From positions 2,310,001 through 2,342,000 of the forward strand of contig NC_014972.1 of the NCBI RefSeq assembly GCF_000186885.1: DNA of 32,000 nt, written 5' to 3'. This document shows, piece after piece, positions 1,783 through 29,203 of the stretch (the stretch's first letter is position 1; the number at the start of each line of letters is the position of its first letter). Source of the DNA: Desulfobulbus propionicus DSM 2032 (GTDB lineage Bacteria > Desulfobacterota > Desulfobulbia > Desulfobulbales > Desulfobulbaceae). A program made the position numbers and the translations under genes. Under the pieces are notes generated by a model, which was given only the letters and a program-made list of their open reading frames with translations, was not told where the DNA came from and ran no database searches.

Positions 1783-2258
1783 TTGCCGCTCCCCGCCGAG
1801 GCGGTGACCACCGAACGATAAAACGAACGCAGGCCGAGAAAGAGGCAGAAAAGGGCCGGCACGTACATCAGATGATCGAGCTTGGTGATGAAATAGAGAT
1901 ACTGGTGCAGGGTCAGGGGGCCAACCAGCCGGGTCTGCAGGTAGCAATCGGTCTGCAACAGGGCCTGCGGATCGAGATAGACACCGACAAGATGACCAAT
2001 GAAGGCCAGCGTGTTCCAGCAGGCCATCAGAATACAGAACATCTGCAAGTAGCGCCATCCACGGCCGGTAAAGGAAGCGCGGCGGATATCCCAGTAAAAA
2101 TAACCGAGGGCAAAGATGTAGTGCAAGTGGGCCATCTGATGGACGTACAGCCCTTCCGGCTCCCCGTGCACCTGCAGGGCCAAGGCATTGTCCGGAAGGA
2201 CAAGAGCCAGGACGGCCATCACAAAAAACCATGTACGAGTGACTGTTCCTCTGGTCAT
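1779..2258 (-). CDS. Small His-rich polytopic membrane protein of unknown function, translationally coupled to the histidine kinase
   Basis: Track ORF 1779..2354. The stop TGA (1781..1779) overlaps the kinase ATG (1782..1780) as ATGA. The start is ambiguous between ATG 2258 (MTRGTVTRTWFFVMAVLALVLPDNALA, signal-peptide-like) and ATG 2294 (preceded by a G6 run). Several hydrophobic segments and many His residues (VHGEPEGLYVHQMAHLHY, IGHLVG, LHQYLY, LDHLMY). No family recognised. Confidence 0.6.
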   Translation of the reverse strand: MTRGTVTRTWFFVMAVLALVLPDNALALQVHGEPEGLYVHQMAHLHYIFALGYFYWDIRRASFTGRGWRYLQMFCILMACWNTLAFIGHLVGVYLDPQALLQTDCYLQTRLVGPLTLHQYLYFITKLDHLMYVPALFCLFLGLRSFYRSVVTASAGSGK

Positions 2259-2310: not shown

Positions 2311-2327
2311 AGCACGATGCGTACCAG
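2311..2327 (-). promoter_or_regulatory. Candidate sigma54 (-24/-12) promoter upstream of the membrane protein/kinase/regulator operon
   Basis: Minus strand reads CTGGTACGCATCGTGCT against consensus YTGGCACGrNNNTTGCW. The GG and GC dinucleotides have canonical spacing and 11 of 14 specified positions match. The predicted TSS near 2300 leaves a leader before ATG 2258. Confidence 0.3.
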
Positions 2328-2750: not shown

Positions 2751-4964
<2,214 letters not shown>

Positions 4965-5178
4965 TGCCGCCTCTCCAGGGAACATGTTCGTGTCACACGC
5001 TATCAACTTATTTAAAATACTTCAAAATCGTCGATAGATCAAGCCCCTCCAACCCCTCGTTCACTTCCAGTAGCCGTTTCCCCTTTTATCGCCCGCAAGC
5101 GGTGACGATCCACGGACCCTTGCGCTACCGCCTCCGGAACCAGGCCGCGCCCGCTCCTTCCCTGTTCCCCCTTGCGCG

Positions 5179-12821: not shown

Positions 12822-15239
<2,418 letters not shown>

Positions 15240-15324: not shown

Positions 15325-15741
15325 CTATGGCGTCTCGGGGTGCGAGCGAACACCTCTCGCGGCGCGGAAAAGACTCCGCTCGATCCGCGACTGAATGAGC
15401 TCCAAAAGTCCTGGATTTTCCAAATAAGGACAGGGGGCGTCATAAGGGAATTCACGGCACTGCCTGGGGCGGGCCTCATGAATGGTGCAACGCTTGCACA
15501 TTCGATCATCGGCCAACAGGATGCAGGAGCCGTCTTCCCTTGTTTTGAAGGTATTTTTGTTCTCCAGATAGCGACGCCGCACCTCGCCGTCATTGATGCC
15601 AAAGTGACGGGCCAAGCGGTTGATATCCTCGGCGGTGAGATACAGGGTGGCACCGGGCAAACGATAGCAACAGTAACCGGGGCAGAAGGTACAGTAGGAT
15701 TTGTTGCGGGCTAAAACGTATTGTTTCGGCATGTCGTCCAT
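15325..15741 (-). CDS. YkgJ-family Cys-cluster protein (CxxCxxCC zinc/iron-chelating domain, UPF0153-like)
   Basis: Track ORF 15325..15744 begins at TTG; the ATG at 15741..15739 is preferred. Motifs are CTFCPGYCC and CILLADDRMCKRCTIHEARPRQCREFP. The ATG shares one nucleotide with the upstream regulator stop (TGATG). Confidence 0.75.
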   Translation of the reverse strand: MDDMPKQYVLARNKSYCTFCPGYCCYRLPGATLYLTAEDINRLARHFGINDGEVRRRYLENKNTFKTREDGSCILLADDRMCKRCTIHEARPRQCREFPYDAPCPYLENPGLLELIQSRIERSLFRAARGVRSHPETP

Positions 15742-17171
15742 CAACGAAAACTCCTTGATTCAATGTGGTACCGCCGTAGCAGACGCTGGAAAGCCTGCCG
15801 TTCCATGCCGCAGTTTCGTGCGGCGGCGGTGACGTTGCCGCCGGCCGCTTGCAAGGCCCCGGCCAGGTAGACGGCGTTGAACCGGTGGAGGATGGCATTT
15901 TTTGCTTCCCGGTAGGGCAAGTGATCCAGCCCCTCCACAGCCAGCGGTCCGTGGCCGGACTCCGCATGGGGTTGCGGCGGTACAGGCGATTCCGACTCCT
16001 CCCAGAGATCCGCCACCTCAAGGACTGAGCCGCGGCAAAGCAGCACAGCCCGGTTGATTGTGTTCTGCAGTTCACGGACATTGCCCTGCCATCTGTGCTG
16101 CATCAAAGCCTGCAAGGCCTCGTCGCTGAATTCCAGACCATCCCGTCCGTGCTCGCGGCTGTACCGCTCAAGAAAATGCTGGGCCAGCAGCGGGATATCG
16201 CCAACCATGGCCGCCAGGCTCGGCATGGTCACGGTCATGACGTTGAGCCGGTAAAAAAAATCCTCCCGAAACTCTCCCCGCCTGATCTTGGCTTCCAAAT
16301 CCTGGTTGGTGGAAGCGATTACCCGGACATCCACCCTGAAGGTCTTGGTTTGTCCCAGGGGCTGGACTTCTTTTTCCTGCAACACCCGCAGCAGCTTGGT
16401 CTGCACGCTCACCGGAATATCGGCCACCTCGTCCAGCAGGATGGTTGTACCGTCGGCTTCGACGAACAAGCCGATCTTGTCGCGATCCGCTCCGGTAAAG
16501 GCCCCCTTGCGGTAGCCGAACAACTCGCTCTCCAGGATATGCTCGGGCAATGCCGGGCAATTCACCGTGATCATGGGACGGCCGGCCCGCGGCGAGAGGC
16601 CATGCAGGGCCCGGGCCGCCAATTCCTTGCCGGTGCCCGATTCACCGCGAATGAGCACGGTGACGTTACTCGCCGCAATCCGCCGCAACAGATCCACGGT
16701 TTGGACCAAGCGCCGCGAACGGCCAATGAAACCGTGCTGTTGCTCCTGGCTGCTCAGCCGGTGCTGGAGCTGCACGTTTTCTCGCAGCAGCTGGGTTCGT
16801 TCGAAAGCCCGGCCGACGGTGCGGATGATCCGTTCGTTATCGAAAGGTTTTTCGATGAAATCGTAGGCCCCGTCCTTCAACGCCTGAACCGCCATGCCTA
16901 TGGTGCCGTAGCCGGTCATCAGGATGGTGGTCACCGCAGGATCGATCATCCCTATCTGCTGGAGCAAGGCCAGCCCGTCCATGCCCGGCATCTTGATATC
17001 CGTGAGCACCACATCGGGCGAATCGCCCCGCATCCGCTCCAAGGCCTCCTCGGCTGAAGTGGCCGCGGTCACGTCATAGCCGCCCTTTTTCACCAGCACC
17101 TTGGTCAACAAAGTGAGCATGTCGCGTTCATCGTCAACGACCAGTACCTTGGCCTGTTTTCCGTGCTCCAT
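15741..17171 (-). CDS. NtrC-family sigma54-dependent response regulator (REC + AAA+ + Fis-type HTH)
   Basis: Track ORF 15741..17183 begins at TTG; ATG 17171 (MEHGKQAKVLVVDDE) is preferred, with GAGAGGG upstream. REC has phospho-acceptor VVLTDIKMPGMDG. AAA+ has Walker A GESGTGKE, the GAFTGA loop (RKGAFTGAD) and Walker B ILLDEV. The C-terminal HTH is NVTAAARNCGMERQAFQRLLRRY. Confidence 0.93.
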   Translation of the reverse strand: MEHGKQAKVLVVDDERDMLTLLTKVLVKKGGYDVTAATSAEEALERMRGDSPDVVLTDIKMPGMDGLALLQQIGMIDPAVTTILMTGYGTIGMAVQALKDGAYDFIEKPFDNERIIRTVGRAFERTQLLRENVQLQHRLSSQEQQHGFIGRSRRLVQTVDLLRRIAASNVTVLIRGESGTGKELAARALHGLSPRAGRPMITVNCPALPEHILESELFGYRKGAFTGADRDKIGLFVEADGTTILLDEVADIPVSVQTKLLRVLQEKEVQPLGQTKTFRVDVRVIASTNQDLEAKIRRGEFREDFFYRLNVMTVTMPSLAAMVGDIPLLAQHFLERYSREHGRDGLEFSDEALQALMQHRWQGNVRELQNTINRAVLLCRGSVLEVADLWEESESPVPPQPHAESGHGPLAVEGLDHLPYREAKNAILHRFNAVYLAGALQAAGGNVTAAARNCGMERQAFQRLLRRYHIESRSFR

Positions 17172-17179
17172 GATCCCTC

Positions 17180-18223
17180 TCAATCGTTGGCGCCGACCAT
17201 GGCCTGAAAATAGAGCTGGACAAACTTACCGGACATGGTGTCGGCCGAGGAAAAGCGAAGATCGTCCGCTGGTGGGATGCGGCCGGTCAGGGTTTCAAAG
17301 GCGTGCCGCGACAAACCGGAGATCGTTCCTTGCAACTCATCGCTGCGACGTTCCTTATCTGGGATGCACCAATAGCGGCAACGCGGCGGCCGATCAGCAA
17401 AGACCAGGCAGCCATCCTGGCCAAGCAGCGGACAACGAAGCGGCGCTTCGGGAAAGGCGTCGGCCAAGGCATCGGCGCTCAAACCGGGCTGGCGGTGGTG
17501 AAGTTCCTTGAGCAGCCGGGCCAGGCCGAGGGCCCGATCAATCACCTGCTGACGCTGTTCCTGGGTGAGACTCCTGTTGATTGCCTGGCTGAGGTGCATG
17601 CTTTCTATCAGCAGAAGTTCAAACGGCCGGCCGCAGCAGGCCGTGTCCCCCCGGCCGCAGCAGGCGTGGTCCGCGGGCGGGCTCCACAGTTCGTCAAAAT
17701 GGGCGATCAGTTGATCAAAGGCCCGAAGCAACGGCGAAACATCCAGGGACGGACGGTTGTCGATCCGAGGCAGCGCCGTCTGCAAGGAACCCACCTGCTT
17801 GCCGTATTGTTTCAGAAAGCGACGTTGGGCGAAAGTGGCCGGATTGGCGCTTTTCCCCTTCATGGTCTGTTCCGCCCGTTTGTAGTCAAAGCCCCGGCGC
17901 AGCAAATAGGCGGCGATAAAGGTGCCGGTGCGACCATGCCCCATGCGGCAATGCACCAGCACCTTCTTGTCGAGATAGATGGCCTCGTCCATCCAGTCCA
18001 GCACCTGTTCCATGGCTTCGAGATCCGGGGCGCATTCGTCGACCACCGGCAGATAGCGGACCTCGAAGCCGCTGTTTTCCTCAATCTGATGCAGATCGCA
18101 GAACTCGCCGCAGAGATTGACAATGGCGCGAATTCCCTGGGCGCGAATGGCATCCAGATCCTCGTAGGACATGGGCGCGTGGCCAGTGGCCAAATGGGGG
18201 GTAATCCAGTTCAACTGGTACAT
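17180..18223 (-). CDS. Dual-specificity (Cys-based, CX5R) phosphatase domain fused to a C-terminal YkgJ-type Cys-cluster domain
   Basis: 347-aa ORF. The N-terminal ~150 aa are DSP-like, with a P-loop VLVHCRMGHGRTGTFIAAYLL. The C-terminal half carries ACCGRGDTACCGRPFELL and CPLLGQDGCLVFADRPPRCRYW, the same pattern as the stand-alone YkgJ protein at 15325..15741. The start lies 4 nt after the dikinase stop. Confidence 0.8.
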   Translation of the reverse strand: MYQLNWITPHLATGHAPMSYEDLDAIRAQGIRAIVNLCGEFCDLHQIEENSGFEVRYLPVVDECAPDLEAMEQVLDWMDEAIYLDKKVLVHCRMGHGRTGTFIAAYLLRRGFDYKRAEQTMKGKSANPATFAQRRFLKQYGKQVGSLQTALPRIDNRPSLDVSPLLRAFDQLIAHFDELWSPPADHACCGRGDTACCGRPFELLLIESMHLSQAINRSLTQEQRQQVIDRALGLARLLKELHHRQPGLSADALADAFPEAPLRCPLLGQDGCLVFADRPPRCRYWCIPDKERRSDELQGTISGLSRHAFETLTGRIPPADDLRFSSADTMSGKFVQLYFQAMVGAND

Positions 18224-18227
18224 GATT

Positions 18228-20792
18228 CTAGGGGATAATGGAAGTTGTGGAGCCGTGGAAGCGGTCGGCCTTTTGAAAAAACAGCTGCACGCGCGAATCG
18301 ATTTCTTCCTCGCGCAGCACCATGTCGAGCAATTTGGTCATGCCGAGCAAACGGCCCACCGCAACCAACACGTCCAACAGCTCGCCAGCTGGACAACCCA
18401 TCAGGCGGGCATCGAGCAGGTCGGCGCGAACACTGACCTCAAACCCCAAACGTCCGAGAATCTGCCGCAGCAAGGCAATGCGGATCGAGCGTCCCTGATA
18501 ATCGCCGCCCCCGCCGGCAAAGCGCAACTGGCAGTGATTGGCCCGGCTGTCGCGGCCGCAGAGGCAGTCAATCAAGGTGAAGTGAAAGCCAAAGCGCATG
18601 TTCAGATTGAGATACTCCGGGCTGACCACCGCATAGGAGGCAAAATCCTTGGACCCGCCGCTGGCGATGCCGCCGGCCAGGGCCATGTCGCCGAATCCCT
18701 GCCAATCGAAATGGAGGTGACTCTGCCAGTCGATCTCAGGACTGCTGAGCCCCTGCCACAGGGCAAGAAACGGTGCGGCCTGCAAGCTCTCGGGGGCGAT
18801 GGCCGCCTGCTGTTCCTCGTTGGCAAAGGCACCGCCCACGTCAAGGAGGTAGATGTCGAGAGGCAGTTCGGTGGCCAGCTTGCGGCAGCGGGAGGCGGCG
18901 CCGCCGGCAGCAATATCGCCGAGGCCAAACATGATCTGCACCGCTTTTTCATGGGCATAACGGATGATGTCATGCAGCGAGCGGCAGGATTGGGGTCTGA
19001 ACTCTGGAGAGTGCGGGTCGAGTAGATGCAAGGGGGTGATATGGTCGAGCAGGCTGCGCAGCTTGGCAGCGTAGGGCGATCCTGCCACCTTTGCTTTCTT
19101 GCGGCTGCTGTCCAACAGTGCGTCAATCTTGCCCGGATACACCCTGCCCTGGTCGCCATCGACAGTAACCTCCTGGCCTTCAGGCAGGAGGACACGGGCC
19201 TGGGTTGCCTCCACCAGCAACACCACCCCGAATTCCCGACAGACAGTGGCAAAATGCCCCGTCACCGACCCCTGCTCACAGATCACCGCCGCAAGTCGGT
19301 CGATATACCGCACCAGGGATGGCGCAATGTGGCGGGTGACCAGAACGGTGGCGGAATCGAGAGCGGCTTGTTCCAAGCGGTCGAGATGCCGAATCACCCC
19401 GAGGGCAACACCGCCGGCCGCCCGCTTGGCATTGGCAAGCAGGGGATGACATTTCGCAGGCAGAGGGTTCGTCGTTATTTTGGCTGGCGGCTCCGTTCTG
19501 GACGATTCCCGGCACAACGGCCGCGATTGGAGGATGAACAGATGTCCCTCTGAATCCATGGCCCACTCGATATCCTGCGGGACGACGAAAAAACGCTCCA
19601 GTTCCCGGCCAACAGCTGCAAGGCGCGCGGCTTGCGCCTGGGTGAGCGAAAGAGTCGCGGCCTGATCAGCTGCCAGATCCTTCTCTTGGAGCTGTCCTTG
19701 GAACAGAACCAGCTGCTGCCGCTGGTTGCCGGCAACGATCCGGGTGGGGTGCTCACTTTCCGGACCAAAAACGAAAACATCCGGAACTACCGCTCCTCCC
19801 ACCAAGGGGAGGCCGAGGCCGCGGATGCTGTGCACCAGCAAAGATTGTCCCTCGGTCACCGAGGGGTCGCGGCTGTAGAGCACGCCGCTGGCCACGCTTT
19901 CCACCATCACCAACACCAGCACCGCCATGGCCGCGTCCTCGTCGCCAATACCGGCATGGATGCGGTACAGCAGGGCCTGGGGGGTATACTTGGAGGCCAA
20001 CACCTCGAGATAGGCCGCCAGCAGTCCATCCCGGTCAATGCCAAGCAGTGAATGGTATTGGCCGGCAAAGCTGTGGTCACCGTCCTCGTGCAGGGCGGAG
20101 GATCGAACCGCGACCCGGAGGATTTCATCCGGCCCCGTGACGGCCAGGCGGTCGTATTCAGCCAGGATTTCCTGGGCCACCAGCGGCGGAAGCTCCATCC
20201 GCCGGATCAGGGTCATCAGCGCCTGCGAGGCCTCGTCCAGGCTGAGGGGCACTTCGAGGTCAATTGCGGCCAAGAGCAAATCCAGGGCGGGCCGCAGTCG
20301 ATTATGCTCGATCAACAGGTCAAAGGTCGTGGCGGTGATGGTGAAGCCGTCGGGTACCTGGGCTTTGGCCTCGTGTTTGAGCAACAGTAGATGTTGGCTC
20401 TTGTTGCCTACCAGGGACGGCTCCGCTGGACTGTTGTGGTCGACAACAAAGGGAGGAATCAAGAATCGCTCCGGCGGAGCCAACACCAGACGGGCGTAAA
20501 AATCGTACTTGTTGAAATAGTCGCGCAGTGAACCGGCTATTCCGGGATGCATCTGCTCCAGGGCGGCAATCATGCCAGCTACCGCCTCGGCCAATTGCCG
20601 ATAGCGGCCGCGAGTCCGCGCCAGGTCTTCCTTTCGCCCCTCGTGGTAAAGCACCTCGAACTCGGCCATCAATTCATGGCACCTGCCGTCGAACCCAAGC
20701 AAGGCCTTGAACCCCTCGTAGGTTTGCTGGAGGATCCGGTCCGGAGCGAACAGCCGCAGTGACCAGTGTTTAAACAGCGCGCCGACCGCCAT
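18228..20792 (-). CDS. PpsA/PPDK-family dikinase-like protein (ATP-grasp PPDK_N + swivelling phospho-His domain) with unassigned N-terminal (~125 aa) and C-terminal (300 aa) regions
   Basis: Track ORF 18228..20930 trimmed to ATG 20792 (MAVGALFKHWSL), with GGGGAGGGGGG directly upstream; it overlaps the thiL end by 23 nt. ATP-grasp motifs: LVGNKSQHLLLL, VRSSALHEDGDHSFAGQYHS, MAVLVLVMVESVASGVLYSRDP, DIEWAMDSEGHLFILQSRP. Swivel-His motif: EQGSVTGHFATVCREFGVVLLV. The last 300 aa (18231..19130) lack the GTNDL and CGE motifs of PEP-utilizers_C. Confidence 0.8.
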   Translation of the reverse strand: MAVGALFKHWSLRLFAPDRILQQTYEGFKALLGFDGRCHELMAEFEVLYHEGRKEDLARTRGRYRQLAEAVAGMIAALEQMHPGIAGSLRDYFNKYDFYARLVLAPPERFLIPPFVVDHNSPAEPSLVGNKSQHLLLLKHEAKAQVPDGFTITATTFDLLIEHNRLRPALDLLLAAIDLEVPLSLDEASQALMTLIRRMELPPLVAQEILAEYDRLAVTGPDEILRVAVRSSALHEDGDHSFAGQYHSLLGIDRDGLLAAYLEVLASKYTPQALLYRIHAGIGDEDAAMAVLVLVMVESVASGVLYSRDPSVTEGQSLLVHSIRGLGLPLVGGAVVPDVFVFGPESEHPTRIVAGNQRQQLVLFQGQLQEKDLAADQAATLSLTQAQAARLAAVGRELERFFVVPQDIEWAMDSEGHLFILQSRPLCRESSRTEPPAKITTNPLPAKCHPLLANAKRAAGGVALGVIRHLDRLEQAALDSATVLVTRHIAPSLVRYIDRLAAVICEQGSVTGHFATVCREFGVVLLVEATQARVLLPEGQEVTVDGDQGRVYPGKIDALLDSSRKKAKVAGSPYAAKLRSLLDHITPLHLLDPHSPEFRPQSCRSLHDIIRYAHEKAVQIMFGLGDIAAGGAASRCRKLATELPLDIYLLDVGGAFANEEQQAAIAPESLQAAPFLALWQGLSSPEIDWQSHLHFDWQGFGDMALAGGIASGGSKDFASYAVVSPEYLNLNMRFGFHFTLIDCLCGRDSRANHCQLRFAGGGGDYQGRSIRIALLRQILGRLGFEVSVRADLLDARLMGCPAGELLDVLVAVGRLLGMTKLLDMVLREEEIDSRVQLFFQKADRFHGSTTSIIP

Positions 20793-21804
20793 CCCCCCTC
20801 CCCTCGCCGTTGCGGAAATGATCAAACCCTCCATAGGTGACGGCCCGCTCCTCGGTGCGACCGTCCGGGAGTTGGCGCAGCAGGAGAACCCCTTCGCCAT
20901 GGACGATGGTGCCGACCGAAGCCAGGGCAAGCCCGCATTGTTCGCCGATTACCCGCAGGGAGTTCTCGGATTCCGGCGCGGCGGTGAAAAGCAATTCATA
21001 ATCCTCACCGCCGCCAATCATCCATTGGAGGGTATCGGCATGGCACAACCTCGCAGCCTCGTCTAAGGGAGCTATACCGGGCAGGGCCGACGAAGTCAGC
21101 CGTGCCCCCACCCCGGACCGCTTGCACAGGTGGGCGAGATCGGTGGCCAACCCATCAGAGAGATCCATCATCGCGTGCGCCAGCCCGGTTTTACCCAGCC
21201 GTTCCCCGAGCTCTACCCGGGCCCTGGGGTTCAGATGCTTCTCGTATAACGGACCAAAATCCTCCCGATCGATCATTCCCCGGTGGAGCAATTCCAGGCC
21301 GGCGGCAGCCAACCCGAGCGGGCCGCTGACCCAGATGACATCACCCGGCCTGGCACCGCTGCGATAGACCACCTGATCCACCGCTGCCTCGCCAATAACG
21401 GTCAGGCAGAAATTAAGCCCCTGCGGGCTGGCCACGGTATCGCCGCCAATGAGCAGGCAGCCGTATTCCCGGCAGGCATCATTCAGCCCCTGGGCAAACG
21501 CTTTGAACCAAGATTCGTCGAAACCGGGCGGCATGCCAACCGACAGCAGAACAAAAAGCGGCTTTCCCCCCATGGCACCGATATCGCTGACATTGACGGA
21601 AACTGCCTTGCGGCCCAGTTTTTCCGGCGGGTGAAAGGCGCAGTCAAAGTGGACCGATTCGATCAGGGTGTCCATGGTCAGCAGCCAGACTTCGTGATCA
21701 TTCTTGGCAATCACCGCGCAGTCGTCACCGATCCCTTGAATCAATCGTCCATCCATGGGGCCGACAAGTGTAGTGATGTATTCGATGAGTTGGCGTTCGT
21801 TCAC
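20770..21804 (-). CDS. thiL: Thiamine-monophosphate kinase
   Basis: Track ORF 20770..21855 starts at GTG. The start is set at GTG 21804..21802 (VNERQLIEYITTLVG), which forms a GTGA overlap with the ptsI stop (21803..21801). This gives the usual ~24 residues before GIGDDCAV. Other motifs: DTLIESVHF, GRKAVSVNVSDIGAMGG, LIGGDT, GGGEDYELLFT. Confidence 0.88.
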   Translation of the reverse strand: MNERQLIEYITTLVGPMDGRLIQGIGDDCAVIAKNDHEVWLLTMDTLIESVHFDCAFHPPEKLGRKAVSVNVSDIGAMGGKPLFVLLSVGMPPGFDESWFKAFAQGLNDACREYGCLLIGGDTVASPQGLNFCLTVIGEAAVDQVVYRSGARPGDVIWVSGPLGLAAAGLELLHRGMIDREDFGPLYEKHLNPRARVELGERLGKTGLAHAMMDLSDGLATDLAHLCKRSGVGARLTSSALPGIAPLDEAARLCHADTLQWMIGGGEDYELLFTAAPESENSLRVIGEQCGLALASVGTIVHGEGVLLLRQLPDGRTEERAVTYGGFDHFRNGEGRGDGGRRAV

Positions 21805-23594
21805 GATTGATAAAAATCTCTTGGATAAAAACGTTGAAAGAAATCGGTCACACACGCACGCACCTCGCCACTGTCCGCGCAGTGGAGGACCTCTTGGGCC
21901 AATAAGTGCAGCTCTCCGCTGTGGGAATGCCGTAACAACCGTTTGATCCAGGGAATAACCGCAGGGCGCATCGACAGCTCATCCAGCTCAAACCCTATCA
22001 ACAGCGGGGCACAAAGAGGGTCACCGGCCATCTCGCCGCAGAGCGACACGGGAATGGCGCGGGCATGGCCGGCGTCGACCGTCTGTCGGATCATCCGCAG
22101 CACCGCGGGATGAAAGGGGTCGTACAAATGAGCCACATACTGATTGCCGCGGTCAATGGCCAGGGAATACTGGATCAGGTCGTTGGTGCCGATGGCAAAA
22201 AAATCCACTTCCATGGCAAGGACATCGCTCATGATCACGGCACTGGGAACTTCGATCAACACCCCGATTTCAAGGTCCTGGTCAAAAGGGATTCCTTCGG
22301 CCGCCAATGCATTCATCGAGTCGTGGATCATCTCCTTTGCCTGGCGCAGTTCCTGCAAGGTTGACACGAGAGGCAGCAAAACGCGCAACCGGCCATGGAC
22401 CGAGGCCCGGAGCAGCGCTCGCACTTGACAGCGAAAAATCTCCCGCTCGTACAGGGAAAAACGAATCGAACGCAGACCGAGAGCCGGATTGCGTTCCCGA
22501 TCGAGCCACGCCTTGTTGCCGGGAAAACGGGCAAGGATCTTATCGCCGCCTACATCGAGGGTGCGGATGGTCACCGGATGCGGGGCCATAGTTGCCAGGA
22601 GGCGGGAATACGTAGCCAGTTGCGCCTCTTCCGTCGGTGGCCGGATCCCTTGAAAAAAATCGAATTCGCTGCGAAACAGCCCTATTCCCTCCGATCCGTA
22701 GCGAAGCACGGCAGAGAGTTCCTCCAGCATCTCGATATTGGCGCTCAAGCGAACGGGACACCCATCCTTGGTTTCCGAGGTCAGATGCACATAGCGGTCC
22801 AGCCCCTCGGCCACGGCGCGATAGTGCTGATCGTTCTCCTGCAGTCGAATAATTTCATTAGGTTGGGGATGAACGACCACCTGGCCCGTTCCGCCGTCGA
22901 GGATAATCGGCTCGCCGGTGTGCAGGATGGAGGTCGCATGCTCCAGGCCGACCACCGCCGGTATATTGAGAGATCGAGCGACGATGGCGGTATGGGAGAT
23001 TGTCCCCCCTTTTTCCGTTATGAAACCAAGAACATTGGCCGACTGCAGTCGCAGGGCATCCTCTGGCGAGAGATCATTGGCAACCAGGATGGTGGGCTGG
23101 TCTGCTGTCTTGCCCTTGGGCGCATATTCCCGGCCGGTAAGCAGACCGAATACCCGATCGGCCACATGCTTGATATCGGCATATCGGTCGCGAATATAGG
23201 GATCGTCAATCAGGGCGAACCGCTCCTTGATTTCGTTCAGGGTCTGGGTCAACGCCCATTCCGCATTGACCTTGTTTTCCCGGATAATGGCCGCGGTGCG
23301 TTCGACAAACATCCGGTCTTGGAGCATCAGCAAATGGGAATCGATGATCGACAAGGCATCATCCATGTGGTCAGCCAACTGCTGCCGCAACTGGATGAGT
23401 TCCTCCCGGGCGGCAGAGATGGCCTGGAAAAAACGTTGGATCTCCGATGCAAGGTGCTCGGCCGGCAGGTGGCACCAACCAGCTCGCCACGTCTGCCGTT
23501 TGACGACAACGACCGTGGCGACCACAATACCGGGCGACACACCAATGCCCTGTAAGACGCGGGAAGTTGTCGACCTGCTTTTCGTATTCTCCAT
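21801..23594 (-). CDS. ptsI: Phosphoenolpyruvate-protein phosphotransferase (PTS Enzyme I)
   Basis: 597-aa ORF with the active-site His context EKGGTISHTAIVARSLNIPAVVG and C-terminal barrel motifs FFAIGTNDLIQYSLAIDRGN and SLCGEMAGDP. Confidence 0.93.
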   Translation of the reverse strand: MENTKSRSTTSRVLQGIGVSPGIVVATVVVVKRQTWRAGWCHLPAEHLASEIQRFFQAISAAREELIQLRQQLADHMDDALSIIDSHLLMLQDRMFVERTAAIIRENKVNAEWALTQTLNEIKERFALIDDPYIRDRYADIKHVADRVFGLLTGREYAPKGKTADQPTILVANDLSPEDALRLQSANVLGFITEKGGTISHTAIVARSLNIPAVVGLEHATSILHTGEPIILDGGTGQVVVHPQPNEIIRLQENDQHYRAVAEGLDRYVHLTSETKDGCPVRLSANIEMLEELSAVLRYGSEGIGLFRSEFDFFQGIRPPTEEAQLATYSRLLATMAPHPVTIRTLDVGGDKILARFPGNKAWLDRERNPALGLRSIRFSLYEREIFRCQVRALLRASVHGRLRVLLPLVSTLQELRQAKEMIHDSMNALAAEGIPFDQDLEIGVLIEVPSAVIMSDVLAMEVDFFAIGTNDLIQYSLAIDRGNQYVAHLYDPFHPAVLRMIRQTVDAGHARAIPVSLCGEMAGDPLCAPLLIGFELDELSMRPAVIPWIKRLLRHSHSGELHLLAQEVLHCADSGEVRACVTDFFQRFYPRDFYQS

Positions 23595-23603
23595 GCCTGT
23601 TTA

Positions 23604-23873
23604 TCAGGAATCATCCTGGCTAGTAAGCAGCACAAGGGCAGCCTGCAACGCCCCTTCAGCCCTGTCGCCATCGGCACGCAAGGTCAGGTTCGTTCCCTCG
23701 ACCAGGGCAAGGGCCAGAACATCGAGGATTGAAGAACAATCAACCGTTTCATCTGCTCGGCTGATGGACAGCACCACACCGAATTCCGCCGCAATTCCCG
23801 CCAGCCGGGTGGCCACCCGGCTGTGCACCCCGCGCCGATTGCCGACAACAAGGTCGCACGCACAGGTCTTCAC
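23604..23873 (-). CDS. ptsH: HPr-family phosphocarrier protein
   Basis: 89-aa ORF with a GTG start. His15-like site GNRRGVHSRVATRLA and a Ser46-like region DCSSILDVLALAL. It ends 9 nt upstream of ptsI, and its GTG overlaps the upstream gene stop as GTGA. Confidence 0.85.
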   Translation of the reverse strand: MKTCACDLVVGNRRGVHSRVATRLAGIAAEFGVVLSISRADETVDCSSILDVLALALVEGTNLTLRADGDRAEGALQAALVLLTSQDDS

Positions 23874-24250
23874 TTGACAATCCGCAAACCCGGTTTTCGC
23901 GGCCCTTGTTGTTGCCCTTTTCGTCGCGCCGTTGGATCAATTGCCTCGCTCGCGGGCGGGTCAAACCGAACCGCCTTGATAAATCTTCCCTCACCGCCCA
24001 TGGTGAAGGTTTCCTGGCCGGTGAACTGGGGCGTGCGCAGGGTCCAAATCACCGTCTGCACCGGAATGGACAACAGGTGCAGGGTCACATGCCACCATTC
24101 CTCCTTGCGGGTCTGATCGCGTTCGATATCGCCCACTAATGCGTACACGAGCATCTGCGGTGATTTTGCAGCAATAAGAACAATATCGCCCACGGTGGTG
24201 GTTTCTTTGAAGGACACAATTTTTTTGAGCTCAGCAACCAACTGTTCCAT
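23870..24250 (-). CDS. Hypothetical 126-aa protein with a basic C-terminal tail, coupled to ptsH
   Basis: ATG-initiated ORF (MEQLVAELKKIVSFKETTTVGDIV...) whose stop TGA (23872..23870) overlaps the ptsH GTG (23873..23871). No family recognised. Support is positional (operon context and overlap) only. Confidence 0.55.
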   Translation of the reverse strand: MEQLVAELKKIVSFKETTTVGDIVLIAAKSPQMLVYALVGDIERDQTRKEEWWHVTLHLLSIPVQTVIWTLRTPQFTGQETFTMGGEGRFIKAVRFDPPASEAIDPTARRKGQQQGPRKPGLRIVK

Positions 24251-24282
24251 GAATAATTCCGAAAAATGAAAAAACTCTTGAT

Positions 24283-24301
24283 CCGTGTTCGGTGAACGCG
24301 G
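24283..24301 (-). terminator. Weak hairpin between the 550-aa unknown gene and the hyp/ptsH operon
   Basis: The minus strand reads CCGCGTTC-ACC-GAACACGG (8 bp including one G-U pair), followed 8 nt later by TTTTTTCATTTTT (complement of 24261-24276). The gap before the U-run and the short stem make this doubtful. Confidence 0.25.
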
Positions 24302-24312
24302 ATGTTTTGTGG

Positions 24313-25965
24313 TCAGTGGCGCATCGTATATTCGATCTCCAGCGCCAGTTCATCCTCGTGGGCGTAGCTGCGGAGGCGGCTGGTTTCAATTGACTCCATC
24401 CGCTTTAAGGCGGGAAGCACAATCTGTTGAATCAGCACTCTGGTCTCCGGCGTCAGGATGTCTGTCTTTCCCCCGTTGCCCTTGGCCAGGAGGGTCAACA
24501 AAGGAAGCAATCGTTGCACGATCTGGCCTGTTCGTAGAAAAAGAATAACATTGCTCCCTTCCCTGACAGTGTCCCGCGCAGCCTGATCAGATTGGACGAT
24601 ATATCGATGCACTTGTTCGATCAGGTCAACACGGTCGGCGAAAACGAGCATGTTTCCCATGAGAGAATAGGCCGGTTGCAGCAACCCGCCGGCGAGAATG
24701 ACGGAGACAATTTCCGCTTTCTCGCTGACCACGGTTACCGCTTGAAGATCGGCAAGCATCTTCCTGAGCAATGCCTCAACCCGGCCACGGTCACGCACCT
24801 CAATGGCCACACAAGCCATGGAGCGAGGCGATTGATGAGCCTCCTGCTGTCTCGTTATGAATACCCCGAATTCGCTGCCGAATACATCAAAAAACGTTTG
24901 CGTGGTTTGTTCGGTGGCGTGCGCGAGGTAGGTGGAAAAATTGGCCAGGAGGGAGGTGACCTCGGGTGTCCCCGTGTTTTGTACTAACTCCCAGAACGAT
25001 TGCAGATTGAACCAGTTGGTCCAAAAGAGAAACTCTGTCTCTGGAGAAATGTATTGAAACCATCGTCTCTCCACAGGGAACGTCATATGATATCGGTTGG
25101 TTAACGCAGACAAACGTTCCTGATCGATCAGAGCCAGCGCGCCAAACCGTCCTTTTCCGCCGTCGTGCTGGTGAAAGAGAGCAATCTGTTGCAGAGGGCT
25201 TTCTTCTCCGTCTTTACCTAAATAAGGAAAGGGAGATAGAACCTGGAAATTGGCGAAGAGAAAGGGATCGGCCTTGGCCCCGGCAAATGTTTTCAACCGA
25301 TGATACCGTTGATTGACCCGTAATCCGGTCTGATTCTGCACCATGTGCTGCAAGGATTGATTGATGCATCGTTGCACCGACCGTGCCGTCAAAGAGGCGA
25401 TCAATATCTGGCGGGTCAGGCAGTACGATACTGCAATTCCGTGGTCAAATTGAAGTGTGACCAGACGTTGCCGTTGGTAGGTCGAAACCGAGGTTGACCG
25501 GACCGGGCCGAAAGAATCCTCAAACCATTGCAGCGGTACAGTTTCCTTGGGCACCCGGACGAGGACGACCAAATTATGGGCCATCGATTCGTTGGACAAT
25601 CGTGTTTGCGATGGATCTGGCAACAAGGCAACAGCGGCTTTGCGGGTGAACAGTTGCGCGAACAGAGGCACCTTGGTGACCTGCTCAATGGAGGCGCCAA
25701 AGGTGGACAGTTGGCGGGTAAATGATTCCGGTAGCCCCTGCCTGGAAAGCAAGGATACCAGGTCGAAACGACGCAGCTGCTCCCCGACCAGGCTCTGACG
25801 CCATTGGCCCCAAGTGTGGGCCAGGTTGTCACCCTCGAGCACGATAGCGGTTTCTGCAGGGAGAAAATCGACCAATTCGGGAGTCGGCGGACGTTGGCGG
25901 GTAAGCCAATACCCGCTCAGCCCCACAACGAGGCAACTAGCCATCAGCGCTAACAATCGTTTCAT
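24313..25965 (-). CDS. Membrane-anchored/exported protein of unknown function (~550 aa; size and layout reminiscent of DUF3352-type proteins, unverified)
   Basis: Track ORF 24313..26025 trimmed to ATG 25965 (MKRLLALMASCLVVGLSGYW, signal-anchor-like). It overlaps the hybrid kinase 3' end by 29 nt. No catalytic motifs recognised. Confidence 0.65.
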   Translation of the reverse strand: MKRLLALMASCLVVGLSGYWLTRQRPPTPELVDFLPAETAIVLEGDNLAHTWGQWRQSLVGEQLRRFDLVSLLSRQGLPESFTRQLSTFGASIEQVTKVPLFAQLFTRKAAVALLPDPSQTRLSNESMAHNLVVLVRVPKETVPLQWFEDSFGPVRSTSVSTYQRQRLVTLQFDHGIAVSYCLTRQILIASLTARSVQRCINQSLQHMVQNQTGLRVNQRYHRLKTFAGAKADPFLFANFQVLSPFPYLGKDGEESPLQQIALFHQHDGGKGRFGALALIDQERLSALTNRYHMTFPVERRWFQYISPETEFLFWTNWFNLQSFWELVQNTGTPEVTSLLANFSTYLAHATEQTTQTFFDVFGSEFGVFITRQQEAHQSPRSMACVAIEVRDRGRVEALLRKMLADLQAVTVVSEKAEIVSVILAGGLLQPAYSLMGNMLVFADRVDLIEQVHRYIVQSDQAARDTVREGSNVILFLRTGQIVQRLLPLLTLLAKGNGGKTDILTPETRVLIQQIVLPALKRMESIETSRLRSYAHEDELALEIEYTMRH

Positions 25966-28639
25966 GTTTGCCCAGCCTGTGCTTCGGGGGGTCCGGCACT
26001 CTCGTTGGCTGCAGATATTTTTCAATTATTTTCAAAACGCTGGAACCATCAATCGGCTTGGACACATAGTCATCCATGCCCGAAGAAAGACACTTTTGCC
26101 GGTCACTGGGCATGGCATGGGCGGTCATGGCAATGATGGGGATATGCTGATTGTCGCCTTCTGCCTCGCGGATTCGCGCAACCGCTTCATATCCGTCCAT
26201 TTCAGGCATCTGGATATCCATGAGAATACAATCAAAAAGGCCGCCACGCCAGGCATCCACAGCTTTTCGCCCGTTTTCCACCACGGTCACCTGATATCCG
26301 GCCTGTCGCAGAAGGGTTCGAATCAAAATTTTGTTGATATATTCATCCTCGGCCACCAGAATTCGTTGCCCGTGGTTTGATAGAGGCATTTGTTCATCAG
26401 ATGGCGAGGAAGGTTCTCTGCTTGGCTTCTGACTTTGCTCGATATCGGGGACAGTGATCGGCAAGGTAAAAGAGAATCGAGTTCCCTTGGCCAGTTCACT
26501 TTCAAACCAAATTCTCCCTCCCATGAGTTCCACTAGCCCCTTGGAAATGGATAGACCGAGTCCTGTGCCGCCAAAACGGCGGGAATGGGAGGAATCGGCT
26601 TGGGAAAAGGATTCGAACACTTTGTCATAGTAGGTGGGAGCGATCCCTATACCGGTATCGGCTACCTCAAACAAAAGCATATCGCCATTGGCAAAGGAAT
26701 TTGGGGACGGTTGGTTCGACACGGTAAGGGTAATCTGTCCTTTGCGTGTAAATTTGAGACTGTTATCGATCAGATTGGTGAGCACTTGCATAATCTTGGT
26801 TTGATCGCCAACCAGCATGTCCGGAACATTCGGAGCAACAATCAAGTGGAGTCGAAGATTTTTACGTTGCGCTGTCGGTTCCATGGGCTGGATCACTTCA
26901 TTGAGCAGATTACGCAAAGAAAACAACCGCTGCTCGAGTTCGAAACGGCCAGCCTCCAACTTGGAAAAATCAAGAATATCATTGATAATAATCATGAGCC
27001 GGATGGCGGATCGATGAATCAACTCCAATTGCTGCCGCTGAAGATCAGGTAAGTCCTCCCGCAACAAAATATTGGACAAGCCTATAATGCCATTCATAGG
27101 AGTGCGTATCTCGTGACTCATGTTGGCCAAAAATTCGCTTTTGGCTATGCTGGCGGTTTCGGCCGCTTCCCTAGCATGATAGAGTTCTTTTTCCACCGCC
27201 TTTCGTCGTGAAATATCTTCGATAACCCAAACTGTCCCTTTGGCGAGATCCTGGGGAGAAATAGCTTTACCGCTCAAGGTGCAAGGAATGAGGGAGCCGT
27301 CTTTCTTCTTGAGTTGGTATTCGATCTGCTCGACGTCTCCTTCTGCAAGCAAGTGAAGGTGTTCCCGGACAAAATGGCGAAAGGATTGTCGATCTGAAAA
27401 AAATTGCCGGATGTCTCCTGAAAGGATTTCTTCCCGAGAGTAACCGAAAATATCAGACATCCGTTTGTTTACATTGATAATTTTTCCCATGCGAACCAGG
27501 ATGATGCCAACTAGACTGGCACTGAAAATGGTTTCCAATTCCAATACAGAAACCCGTCTGGCGGATTCCGCCCGGTCACTTGCCTCCTGGCCCGCCAACA
27601 CTTGACTGGTCAGTTCCTGTTCCTTATGCGAATGGAGAACAATACTACCAGTCAGGATTCCCAACGACAGAACAATGCTATTGAGTACAAGAACAATTGC
27701 CCAAGGAAAAGGGGCGGGGACAAGAGTTGCTATGGACCAACCACTGTTGGAAAGCGGCAGAAGATCAACTGAATAACGAAGATTATTGCGATGAATAATA
27801 GGAGCTTGAAGGGAAAAAGGCAGTGAGGATAAAGAATGGTCACCAAATTGACGACCATCCTTAATTTCTTGCAACCGTTCTGGAGCTATTTTCCAAGCTG
27901 CTTTAAAGTTCCATTCATTTTTGGTTGAAGCAAAAACAATACCGTCGTTTGAAACAAGGAGCGCGTCAAAAGTATCTTTGATATGGGAAAAAAAGATATC
28001 GGCAGAGGTATCGGATGTTTTAATTACAACAACGCCGATTGGTTTTCCATGACTCGTTGTATAAATCGGTGCACCAAAATAGAACCCTCTTCGTTTGGTG
28101 GTCACGCCGACAGCAGGATAAAAAGTGGGATTACCGGCCAACGCATGAAAAAAATAGGGACGAAATGGGTATTCATTACCGGTGAGACTCGGTTCATCAA
28201 CATTCGCGGAACTACCAATCACAGTCCCTTCATGGTTCATGACATAGACTAGGGCAGCATTGAGTACCCCTTGGGCCGTATTCAAGACGCGGAGCAAGTT
28301 GCTGTTGTCACTATCTGTCTTTCCGACACAAACATCAATTATTTCTGAATACTTGGCTAACTCAAGGGCGGCGTTGGTATAGTTGGCTATGATATAGTTC
28401 TTCAGTTCTGCAGCCAGGTTAGTTGTTATGGGATGCTGTTCTTTCTTATACCGGAAAAGGATGTATTGATCGCTGCCAAGACTCACCAGGGCGAGACACA
28501 GCAAGGTAAATGCACCGATACAAACGAGTCGTCGCCGCACAGTGCCCAATGATTGATAAAAACCGCGGGAAGAAAAGGATTTACTGTTCTCAGGTGTTTC
28601 AATACTCAACGGATCGAACTCCAAGGGGCAAATGGTCAC
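25937..28639 (-). CDS. Hybrid sensor histidine kinase/response regulator (periplasmic Cache-like domain, TM, PAS, HisKA, HATPase_c, REC)
   Basis: 900-aa ORF starting at GTG 28639; there is no in-frame ATG before TM1, so the start is uncertain. TM1 is LVCIGAFTLLCLALVSLG. A ~270-aa extracytoplasmic region has a Cache-like pattern (RPYFFHAL, GAPIYT, GVVVIK). Then TM2 and PAS, H-box FLANMSHEIRTPMNGIIG, N-box LTNLIDNSLKFT, G1 DTGIGI, G2 GGTGLGLSISK, and REC RILVAEDEYIN...DCILMDIQMPEMDG...DDYVSKP. Confidence 0.9.
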   Translation of the reverse strand: MTICPLEFDPLSIETPENSKSFSSRGFYQSLGTVRRRLVCIGAFTLLCLALVSLGSDQYILFRYKKEQHPITTNLAAELKNYIIANYTNAALELAKYSEIIDVCVGKTDSDNSNLLRVLNTAQGVLNAALVYVMNHEGTVIGSSANVDEPSLTGNEYPFRPYFFHALAGNPTFYPAVGVTTKRRGFYFGAPIYTTSHGKPIGVVVIKTSDTSADIFFSHIKDTFDALLVSNDGIVFASTKNEWNFKAAWKIAPERLQEIKDGRQFGDHSLSSLPFSLQAPIIHRNNLRYSVDLLPLSNSGWSIATLVPAPFPWAIVLVLNSIVLSLGILTGSIVLHSHKEQELTSQVLAGQEASDRAESARRVSVLELETIFSASLVGIILVRMGKIINVNKRMSDIFGYSREEILSGDIRQFFSDRQSFRHFVREHLHLLAEGDVEQIEYQLKKKDGSLIPCTLSGKAISPQDLAKGTVWVIEDISRRKAVEKELYHAREAAETASIAKSEFLANMSHEIRTPMNGIIGLSNILLREDLPDLQRQQLELIHRSAIRLMIIINDILDFSKLEAGRFELEQRLFSLRNLLNEVIQPMEPTAQRKNLRLHLIVAPNVPDMLVGDQTKIMQVLTNLIDNSLKFTRKGQITLTVSNQPSPNSFANGDMLLFEVADTGIGIAPTYYDKVFESFSQADSSHSRRFGGTGLGLSISKGLVELMGGRIWFESELAKGTRFSFTLPITVPDIEQSQKPSREPSSPSDEQMPLSNHGQRILVAEDEYINKILIRTLLRQAGYQVTVVENGRKAVDAWRGGLFDCILMDIQMPEMDGYEAVARIREAEGDNQHIPIIAMTAHAMPSDRQKCLSSGMDDYVSKPIDGSSVLKIIEKYLQPTRVPDPPKHRLGKHETIVSADG

Positions 28640-28790
28640 GTGGCATGTTCAACAAAGTGAACACGCCAATCATTTCCTGTTCATTTGCGTTCGTTGTTCG
28701 GGGAAATCGGCCAAAGAGGTGTAAGCGAATATATTTTTCGTTCAGTTTCGACAATCTGTCAACAACTGATCGTAGCAAACAGGTGAGGAG

Positions 28791-28825
28791 TGTCTTGGTT
28801 CAACAGGAATAGGACAATCCTGCCG
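28791..28825 (+). repeat. IS left inverted repeat (IRL)
   Basis: TGTCTTGGTTCAACAGGAATAGGACAATCCTGCCG aligns ungapped with the reverse complement of 30183..30217, 23/35 identical. Confidence 0.55.
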
Positions 28826-28859
28826 TTTATGATAAACCATCATGAACGGAGGGAAGTCC

Positions 28860-29168: not shown

Positions 29169-29203
29169 ATGGCGGTTGGGTTCCCCATGACACCCGCGAT
29201 GCC

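Follow-up and report, generated by a model that had tools for sequence, protein, structure and literature searches.

The genes described here lie in a stretch of 32,000 nucleotides from Desulfobulbus propionicus DSM 2032 (NC_014972.1, positions 2,310,001 to 2,342,000 of the forward strand), which is called the window and from whose first letter all coordinates are counted. Eight genes follow each other on its minus strand. They encode the small protein unk126 (Despr_2046, 24250..23870), for which no family match was obtained in Pfam or NCBIfam; HPr (ptsH, 23873..23604) and Enzyme I (EI; ptsI, 23594..21801) of the phosphotransferase system (PTS); thiamine-monophosphate kinase (thiL, 21804..20770); a dikinase-like protein of 854 amino acids with a PPDK_N and a swivel-histidine domain (20792..18228); a fusion protein of 347 amino acids in which a dual-specificity phosphatase (DSP) domain with a CX5R loop is followed by a cysteine-rich tail (18223..17180); an NtrC-type sigma-54 activator (17171..15741); and a standalone YkgJ/CxxCxxCC protein (15741..15325).

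The genes are closely joined. A GTGA overlap connects unk126 with ptsH (23873-23870) and another one ptsI with thiL (21804-21801), thiL and the dikinase gene overlap by 23 nucleotides with a strong Shine-Dalgarno sequence, GGGGAGGGGGG, upstream of the latter, and the regulator and YkgJ genes share one nucleotide in a TGATG. The remaining gaps measure 9 nucleotides between ptsH and ptsI, 4 between dikinase and phosphatase, and 8 between phosphatase and regulator. A sequence-only reading of this DNA had named these eight genes with their junctions and domains. Every junction proved exact, the starts of the eight open reading frames (ORFs) were reproduced by independent gene calls on the identical public contig, and each domain assignment was borne out by Pfam and NCBIfam. 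That reading had also seen no EIIA, EIIB, EIIC, or HPr kinase, and none is present among the main ORFs scanned in the 32 kb of the window, which thus do not provide a complete sugar PTS. Its description of four phospho-chemistries in one cluster agrees with the conservation of the residues concerned, as His17 of HPr, His201 and Cys519 of EI, His513 of the dikinase, Asp58 of the regulator, and the CX5R motif of the phosphatase are all invariant. Its proposal that they form one regulatory phosphotransfer module, in contrast, was not supported, since the parts are separable and Nitrospirota and other lineages have operons of a dikinase and a cysteine phosphatase with neither PTS genes nor a response regulator. 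Rather than one phosphorelay, the locus is a mosaic that combines three conserved modules, among which dikinase and phosphatase make up a separable and older unit. In the literature searched this pair appears to be undescribed, and it has been inserted into an operon of PTS, ThiL, and sigma-54 regulator genes.

The dikinase and its phosphatase partner

The dikinase-like protein begins with a conserved helical region (residues 1-125), continues with a PPDK_N ATP-grasp domain (227 bits) and a swivel phosphohistidine domain (PEP-utilizers, 59 bits), and ends with a domain of 280 amino acids. His513 in the swivel domain is invariant in 79 of 79 orthologues. The protein is annotated automatically as 'PEP synthase' or 'pyruvate, water dikinase' (PEP, phosphoenolpyruvate), and it shares with PpsA and PPDK the succession of ATP-grasp and swivel domains and the invariant catalytic histidine. 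It differs from them in that an unrelated alpha+beta domain stands where they have the C-terminal TIM barrel (PF02896), in the additional conserved 125 residues at the N-terminus, and in its obligate cysteine-phosphatase partner. As the PEP/pyruvate-binding domain PF02896 was not matched, it is not a PEP synthase or PPDK. Models of PpsA match residues 128-565 only, with 240-250 bits against cutoffs of 598-740, and PpsA chains from the Protein Data Bank (PDB) align only to the N-terminal two domains. A classification as RPH was rejected as well, because the swivel domain is central rather than C-terminal and NF041857 scores 184 bits against a cutoff of 999.

The C-terminal domain contains the invariant motifs RSxHDxxRxxHE, LLDVG, HFDW, YxNxNxRFGxHF, CxxRFAGGGG, and GRLLGxTK. 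It is rich in invariant arginine, histidine, and aspartate residues and looks like a substrate site. A structural model yielded an alpha+beta fold that is not a TIM barrel (predicted local distance difference test, pLDDT, 73.5), with no significant structure or sequence match to solved proteins in the PDB and no known family. An exhaustive profile search found the domain in 1344 representative clusters, and nearly all of the full-length ones among the 150 hits listed have the domain at the same position in a protein of either ~820-870 or ~1060 amino acids. In members of the 1060-residue subfamily (P0302, P0289, P0304, and similar ones) an extra concanavalin/lectin-like domain was seen at residues ~920-1050, with weak matches to PF21708, PF06439, and PF13385.

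The phosphatase fusion matches PF22784 with 69.8 bits (cutoff 27) and the PTP-SAK/DSPc families of Pfam. Its HCRMGHGRTG loop (HCRxGxGRTG) and a DEcaPD motif are conserved in 69 orthologues, so that by sequence it has the HCX5R(S/T) P-loop and the upstream general-acid aspartate of a DSP. In its C-terminal half the pattern C..CC...CPL..C..RP.RCR is invariant, and weak matches to PF03692, the family of YkgJ, were obtained for 13 of 23 members (best E = 3e-4); a profile comparison with YkgJ by hhalign gave E = 0.003 at a probability of 10%, and BLAST was suggestive only. Because of the invariant cysteine motif and the weak PF03692 matches this half is probably a divergent YkgJ-type domain, which would make two such domains in the cluster. 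The standalone YkgJ protein itself scores 40.8 bits for PF03692 (cutoff 23) with all cysteines invariant.

The connection of the two proteins is in some cases a covalent one. P0177 and P0207 join the whole DSP plus cysteine-rich protein to the dikinase, an ArsC-like low-molecular-weight protein tyrosine phosphatase (LMW-PTP) domain is fused to its N-terminus in 12 clusters, and a PP2C domain is fused to it in P0309. The last one, 1290 amino acids long and encoded on a metagenome contig of 4.6 kb, consists of a dikinase of the 1060-residue subfamily and a C-terminal PP2C/SpoIIE domain. A threonine two residues before the dikinase histidine, which in PpsA and PPDK is the regulatory site of the PSRP/PDRP type, was considered as a target of the phosphatase; as alanine takes its place in 54 of the 79 orthologues, this idea was weakened.

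Conservation of the cluster and its separable parts

Homologues were collected with the C-terminal domain of the dikinase, taking one genome per species, and relatives were found in at least 197 genomes. Among the best 80 nearly all were labelled as Desulfobulbales or as metagenome-assembled genomes (MAGs) of related Desulfobacterota, and the homologues from Desulfobulbales are full-length with 45-75% identity. Neighbours were counted by tblastn of ten window proteins, the eight above and two encoded upstream of them, against these loci, counting only loci with enough flank. All ten genes occur together in 11 species, and their order is kept down to 44-48% identity of the dikinase. Direct look-up confirmed the ten-gene order in Desulfolithobacter dissulfuricans, in Thermodesulfobacteriota B35, and in a Desulfobulbaceae MAG, the last with an inserted transglutaminase-core gene and without YkgJ. 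The overlaps and short gaps are themselves conserved among relatives. The arrangement is beyond chance, as the same order recurs in other Desulfobulbaceae at 45-75% protein identity. The sequence-only reading had proposed such a neighbourhood check, and its outcome is positive for the tightly coupled cluster in relatives of Desulfobulbus.

The strength of association differs from gene to gene. The phosphatase fusion adjoins the dikinase in 68 of 71 loci, and the regulator follows the phosphatase in 49 of 56. Among informative loci, ThiL directly precedes the dikinase in 27 of 57, YkgJ is present in 20 of 56, all of them of the PTS-containing type, and EI together with HPr is present in only 20 of 47. 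In Desulfocapsa, Desulforhopalus, and related genomes dikinase, phosphatase, and regulator stand together with none of the upstream genes, and three genomes (L012, L018, and L021) have kept unk126, ThiL, and dikinase, or ThiL and dikinase, without HPr and EI. A natural split of the cluster over two contigs is seen in D. rhabdoformis (DSM 8777; L092, L064), where one contig has the hybrid kinase, the 550-residue protein, unk126, HPr, EI, ThiL, the regulator, YkgJ, the small membrane protein f4, a kinase, a REC, and a GAF protein in this order, and the other one dikinase, phosphatase, REC, TauE, REC, and TauE.

Some variants were noted in passing. In L004, L051, and L055 a transglutaminase-core gene (321 amino acids) and another ORF stand between phosphatase and regulator, and YkgJ is absent. 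The lon gene adjoins the cluster in several lineages (L057, L063, L068, L079, L080) on differing sides; in the window (12822-15239) it is convergent downstream of YkgJ, elsewhere it is upstream of the dikinase, and it is maybe a remnant of ancestral synteny. In Desulforhopalus a ThiM (hydroxyethylthiazole kinase) gene is divergent from the dikinase (L054, 6895-7785, minus strand), and in L095 (12594-13544) an NMT1/THI5-like or sulfonate-binding SsuA-like protein adjoins it. These two neighbours could indicate a connection to thiamine or sulfonates, or be a coincidence.

The PTS proteins qualify as general components of the system. HPr matches PF00381 with 59 bits and scores above the cutoff of TIGR01003; its His17 does not vary, and 19 of 20 orthologues have Ser48. 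EI comprises all three EI domains, scores 543 bits for TIGR01417 (cutoff 342), has no N-terminal GAF domain, and shows His201 and Cys519 in 23 of 23 sequences. Both proteins thus lie above curated cutoffs with intact catalytic residues. ThiL reaches the equivalog level of TIGR01379 (316 bits, cutoff 184). Its suspected role as a housekeeping passenger is still conceivable, as it is a true ThiL by score; it nevertheless occurs at a conserved position in every PTS-containing version of the cluster. No second thiL was seen near any cluster, the sole ThiL-like ORF, in L030, being HypE (25% identity, C-terminal PRIC motif).

Although the eight genes are real, the cluster is longer than first described. 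Upstream and in the same direction lie the genes of a hybrid sensor histidine kinase with PAS, HisKA, HATPase, and REC domains in Pfam (28639..25937, minus strand) and of a 550-residue signal-peptide protein with no known domain (25965..24313, minus strand), whose ORFs overlap by 29 nucleotides. Orthologues of the kinase have a periplasmic dCache_1 sensor domain, it precedes the cluster in 15 of the 35 loci that were informative, and other gene callers place its start 18 codons later (~28585). The 550-residue protein has a signal or anchor sequence at its N-terminus, MKRLLALMASCLVVGLSGYW, and no match in Pfam or NCBIfam; its orthologues (19-44% identity) always stand between the kinase and unk126. 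For unk126 an AlphaFold2 model gave a small beta-barrel (pLDDT 74), whose sole matches were weak ones to Tudor/SH3-like folds, so that a hidden EIIA, EIIB, or Hpt was rejected. It has 680 homologues, and the named ones among the best 120 come from Desulfobulbus or related MAGs. It was met in this context only, always adjoining ptsH, to which it is translationally coupled.

A gap of 62 nucleotides (24251-24312), which measures 62-400 nucleotides among relatives, separates the 550-residue gene from unk126. It contains a modest hairpin (24281..24303, minus strand; -12.8 kcal/mol, z = -2.2), an inverted repeat with a U-rich tract, UUUUUUCAUUUUU, 6 nucleotides further on, which may be a weak terminator or attenuator, or nothing. 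It is possible that the two upstream genes and those from unk126 onward form one transcript, or two. The best sigma-70-like promoter match, a consensus match only, is TTGACA-18-AAAAAT (10/12) upstream of the hybrid kinase (28733..28762, minus strand); within the cluster consensus scans for promoters and terminators gave match counts not above those of shuffled sequences.

Elsewhere in the window are tig-clpP-clpX-lon, an MFS transporter, an alcohol dehydrogenase, PpnN, Ppk1, an IS3 element, and an antiporter subunit. The element (28842-30208, plus strand; HTH_Tnp_1 ORF 28842-29168 and rve integrase ORF 29204-30208) separates the antiporter gene (30346-31773) from the hybrid kinase, at a place where the contig of a public draft assembly breaks; in D. 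rhabdoformis antiporter genes directly precede the kinase. The 5' two-thirds of the kinase gene have a GC content of 0.45-0.49 against ~0.59 (profile 26001-29000).

The regulator and the link to TauE and PhsAB-like proteins

The regulator has the parts of an NtrC-type enhancer-binding protein, a REC domain with Asp58 invariant in 60 of 60 sequences, an AAA+ domain with GAFTGA, and a helix-turn-helix whose HTH_8 match of 19.6 bits is just under the cutoff of 22. By clustering all ORFs of 87 loci a second module was traced that usually follows the regulator, or the regulator and YkgJ. It consists of f4, a PAS kinase, a single REC protein, a GAF-GAF-PAS-HisKA protein lacking the ATPase domain, a DUF8269-TauE protein, and a short TauE, and a molybdopterin oxidoreductase often comes next. 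In D. propionicus this module is displaced by 13 kb. The window contains f4 (1779..2258, minus strand), a small histidine-rich membrane protein with 71-81% identity to the f4 family of relatives, and the PAS histidine kinase (220..1782, minus strand; 520 amino acids), which is 80-84% identical to the kinase after regulator and YkgJ in close relatives; a kinase ORF of 670 amino acids at 220..2232 was an over-extension and is really f4 plus this kinase. The REC, GAF-GAF-PAS-HisKA, and two TauE genes are just past the window edge (continuation in L096). Genes for Ppk1 (2751-5006) and PpnN (5179-6561), both on the minus strand, lie between cluster and displaced module, an insert absent from relatives with the two directly adjacent.

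About 53 nucleotides upstream of f4 there is a sigma-54-type -24/-12 element, TGGTACgcatcGTGCT (TGGTAC-N5-GTGCT; 2311..2326, minus strand). A site of this type (TGGCAY-N5-xTGCW) is found just upstream of f4, between regulator and module kinase, in 32 of 37 loci. At a background of 0.116 sites per kb and strand and an average interval of 1 kb about 0.12 sites would be expected per interval. In front of the dikinase, unk126, and the hybrid kinase no such site recurred consistently. From this position of the promoter motif it is likely that the regulator activates the f4/PAS-kinase/REC/GAF-HisKA/TauE operon. The kinase, REC, and HisKA-only relay of the same module could in turn, given its position, phosphorylate the regulator; the ten-gene cluster itself contains no Hpt domain.

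Another group of dikinase operons was found outside Desulfobulbales. In six loci from four lineages (L088-L091, L094, L095), including Dissulfurispiraceae and Thermodesulfovibrio, the order is a TauE of ~420 amino acids, a TauE of 129 amino acids, a PhsA-like molybdenum subunit, an iron-sulfur protein, a Fer2/Fer4 protein, a NuoF/GltD-like NAD(P)H flavoprotein, an ArsC-like LMW-PTP, and a 1060-residue dikinase. The molybdenum subunit has no twin-arginine leader, and neither PTS genes nor response regulators were seen in the dikinase operons examined in Nitrospirota and the other lineages. With their counterparts that follow the regulator in Desulfobulbales, the TauE proteins share 71-80% and the molybdenum subunit ~50% identity. 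The LMW-PTP is either fused to the dikinase or encoded directly upstream of it; it is closest to thioredoxin-type ArsC and keeps the cysteine triad CxGNxxRS...LCxDxxxxCP...DP in every copy. In the Dissulfurispiraceae loci L088 and L089 TrxB (TIGR01292, 358 bits, cutoff 343) follows the dikinase. In L090 the genes after the dikinase encode GGDEF, HATPase_c_2, and RsbR/STAS proteins, a hint at partner-switching signalling. Of all parts of the locus, the dikinase and its cysteine P-loop enzyme form the firmest functional couple, and across phyla this couple goes together with TauE and a PhsAB-like enzyme of the cytoplasm.

Published data touch the same genes. In D. dissulfuricans the TauE pair and PhsA-2/PhsB-2 (GF1_10120/10130), a thiosulfate-reductase-type enzyme lacking subunit C (PMC9751629), are encoded directly downstream of its copy of the cluster, ten genes from the dikinase GF1_10020. 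EI (GF1_10000) and the dikinase are both of low abundance in the proteome of this organism, in which unk126 (GF1_09980) was detected too. During thiosulfate disproportionation by Dissulfuribacter thermophilus, levels of a PhsAB-like enzyme of the cytoplasm and of the TauE/membrane-protein pair DITHS69_1989/1990 rise, and DITHS69_1988, which adjoins the TauE pair and is annotated as 'PEP synthase', is up by log2 3.4 (PMC13490349); its membership of the dikinase family is a lead, not a result. The 'PEP synthase' A0A1B9F8F1 is called DITHS69_1988 in table 2 and DITHS69_1161 in the text of that paper, and neighbouring UniProt accessions suggest 1988. Neither paper names the pair of dikinase and phosphatase, the PTS, or the sigma-54 regulator among the parts of the system (PMC9751629, PMC13490349). 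The molybdoenzyme associated with the dikinase matches the published PhsA-2; it may or may not be that of the published MOLY (MolyABC) cluster, a marker of disproportionation. In Desulforhopalus the molybdoenzyme downstream of the module has an N-terminal fusion to a TorD-like chaperone domain, and in other loci a protein of 215 amino acids without family match precedes it (L054 16369-19218; L085 18136-20800). A literature search found no description of the combination of dikinase, phosphatase, PTS, and sigma-54 genes, and searches on dikinase plus DSP, the PTS of Desulfobulbus, Despr locus tags, and YkgJ function returned nothing relevant. Each gene belongs to a known superfamily. In the literature searched, however, three features appear to be undescribed. 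One is a dikinase family whose C-terminal domain is peculiar to it, another is that this family is almost always paired, and occasionally fused, with cysteine P-loop proteins of phosphatase fold, and the third is its linkage across phyla to TauE and a subunit-C-less PhsAB-like molybdoenzyme.

Possible role of the pair

Tentatively we favour a metabolic role, in which ATP is used to phosphorylate a small anionic acceptor, probably a sulfur-related one, and cysteine-based processing follows. Characterised enzymes with PPDK_N and swivel-histidine domains, among them PpsA, PPDK, GWD, RPH, and PigC, phosphorylate small molecules or glucans. This precedent is one reason for the preference; the others are that the operons outside Desulfobulbales are purely enzymatic and that both common partners have additional redox or metal cysteines, with TrxB after the dikinase in some operons. 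The adjacency and fusions of the pair, the ArsC-like enzyme that takes the place of the DSP, the shared transporter and molybdoenzyme, the residues of the C-terminal domain, the sigma-54 sites, the natural separation of the modules, and the proteome data also speak for the scheme set out next. The dikinase would phosphorylate its own His513 from ATP and pass the phosphate to an acceptor bound by the family-specific C-terminal domain, most likely a small, anionic, sulfur-related metabolite. The adjoining cysteine P-loop enzyme, here the DSP with its YkgJ-like cysteine/metal domain, would then attack or hydrolyse the phosphorylated product, in a step akin to the resolution of an activated oxyanion by ArsC or APS reductase. 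The pair would serve the two proteins encoded with it across phyla, an anion transporter of the TauE family and a PhsAB-like molybdoenzyme of the cytoplasm. In the module of sigma-54 activator and YkgJ, the activator would turn on the f4/PAS-kinase/REC/GAF-HisKA/TauE operon. The front end of dCache kinase, 550-residue protein, unk126, HPr, EI, and ThiL, present in part of the Desulfobulbales only, would be an upstream addition, by which extracellular ligands and the PEP/pyruvate status may be reported to the same transcription unit. Gene order, coupling, conservation, fusions, the promoter motif, and the intact catalytic residues are observed; all steps of phosphotransfer, the kind of acceptor, and the target of the regulator are inferred.

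Known systems resemble parts of this scheme. In the plant starch cycle the swivel-histidine dikinase GWD and the CX5R DSPs SEX4/LSF2 work on one substrate, to our knowledge the only well-known pairing of a dikinase with a DSP. GWD, however, is built in the order of carbohydrate-binding modules, histidine domain, and C-terminal nucleotide-binding domain, and a lectin-like domain occurs only in the 1060-residue dikinases of other phyla; the cluster has no starch or glycogen context, and its phosphatase carries a cysteine-rich metal-binding domain. The LMW-PTP partner of other phyla shares three cysteines with ArsC of the pI258 type, has TrxB nearby in Dissulfurispiraceae, and recalls ArsC and APS/PAPS reductases, in which a cysteine P-loop enzyme resolves an oxyanion adduct with thiols. 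It scores only 85-90 bits against ArsC cutoffs of 174-215, with no ars genes nearby, and the partner in the window is a DSP-fold enzyme with a YkgJ-like domain, for which a reductase activity is pure inference. With PTS-Ntr (EI-Ntr/NPr/EIIA-Ntr) the cluster has in common that EI and HPr, without a sugar permease, are genomically tied to sigma-54 regulation. It differs in that EI has no GAF domain, that EIIA-Ntr, HprK, and rpoN are absent from the window, and that the partner is an NtrC-type activator rather than a sigma factor operon.

Several observations weigh against the metabolic role. The dikinase is scarce in D. dissulfuricans, at ~0.005% relative protein content (based on the normalized spectral abundance factor), the TauE genes of D. 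propionicus are not directly followed by a PhsA-like one, and the phosphatase loop has the CX5R-Thr and aspartate features of a true hydrolase. No acceptor was found, the C-terminal domain being without recognisable fold relative in a model of moderate quality (pLDDT 73.5), and the target of the regulator was assigned by motif position only. A protein substrate is moreover favoured by the circumstance that DSP, LMW-PTP, and especially PP2C, as in P0309, are typically protein phosphatases.

The strongest alternative is a regulatory switch, a possible explanation which we hold to be nearly as likely as the metabolic one. The dikinase would be an atypical protein kinase, or be itself controlled by phosphorylation, the cysteine phosphatase would reverse the mark, and the pair would control how active the regulator, the transporter, or the molybdoenzyme is. 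That three unrelated families of protein phosphatases are fused to or stand beside the dikinase, that the regulator so regularly comes right after the phosphatase, that partner-switching genes (HATPase_c_2, RsbR/STAS, GGDEF) follow the dikinase in L090, and that the dikinase is of low abundance would all fit a switch. We know of no PPDK_N/swivel-histidine enzyme, on the other hand, that phosphorylates a protein, the threonine of the PSRP/PDRP type is mostly replaced by alanine, the Nitrospirota operons hold enzymes and transporters and no regulator, and the ArsC-like redox cysteine triad with the adjoining TrxB points to redox catalysis.

That the genes are unrelated neighbours, with housekeeping ptsH, ptsI, and thiL sharing a transcript through genome compaction and history, we consider unlikely. 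ThiL and EI score as ordinary family members, no second copy of thiL was seen near any cluster, the modules part in D. rhabdoformis and in Desulfocapsa-type genomes, and flanking genes vary between genomes, all of which speaks for mere co-location. With order and coupling conserved as they are, down to 44-48% dikinase identity in the 11 species and including the overlaps and short gaps, it is hard to reconcile, and unk126 was found nowhere else than beside ptsH.

The single chain proposed from the sequence, in which phosphate would run from PEP over EI and HPr to the dikinase, the phosphatase, and the REC domain of the regulator and so report metabolic state to sigma-54, is less likely still: tight translational coupling, intact phospho-acceptor residues, the lack of an Hpt partner for the hybrid kinase, which leaves room for an unconventional carrier, and the persistence of PTS, ThiL, regulator, and YkgJ without the dikinase pair in D. 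rhabdoformis speak for it, but over half of the dikinase loci, and all those examined outside Desulfobulbales, are without EI and HPr, these two are lost with the rest kept in L012, L018, L021, and L030, no computational signal of transfer from HPr or the swivel histidine to REC was found, we know of no precedent, and the conventional PAS kinase/REC/HisKA-only relay beside the regulator in most genomes can explain its phosphorylation. A single relay from EI to the regulator lacks support, then, because most dikinase loci have no PTS genes; a PTS input to the regulator stays alive because of the adjacency of PTS, ThiL, and regulator that persists in D. rhabdoformis.

Within the favoured metabolic role a more specific and rather speculative version may be formulated, for which we see only a small chance. 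The dikinase and its cysteine P-loop partner would carry out an unrecognised ATP-dependent step of dissimilatory sulfur-oxyanion metabolism, in which an oxyanion is activated by phosphorylation and resolved via cysteines and thioredoxin, beside the PhsAB-like enzyme and TauE. If this were true, the pair would be a missing component of thiosulfate or sulfur disproportionation in Desulfobulbales, Dissulfuribacter-like bacteria, and Nitrospirota, and in Desulfobulbaceae it would in addition be connected to control by the PTS and sigma-54.

Current candidates in the unresolved biochemistry of the disproportionation of sulfur compounds include TauE and the PhsAB-like enzyme, and the present analysis places named, testable genes beside them. 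As the dikinase is routinely mis-annotated as PEP synthase, it can be wrongly assigned to gluconeogenesis in omics studies. Should a sulfur intermediate be what the pair acts on, its genes are concrete ones on which the missing steps can be tested; should the pair be regulatory, it would be the first case of a swivel-histidine dikinase serving as a signalling kinase. Either way, EI and HPr of Desulfobulbus have been recruited into a sigma-54/two-component operon without any EII.

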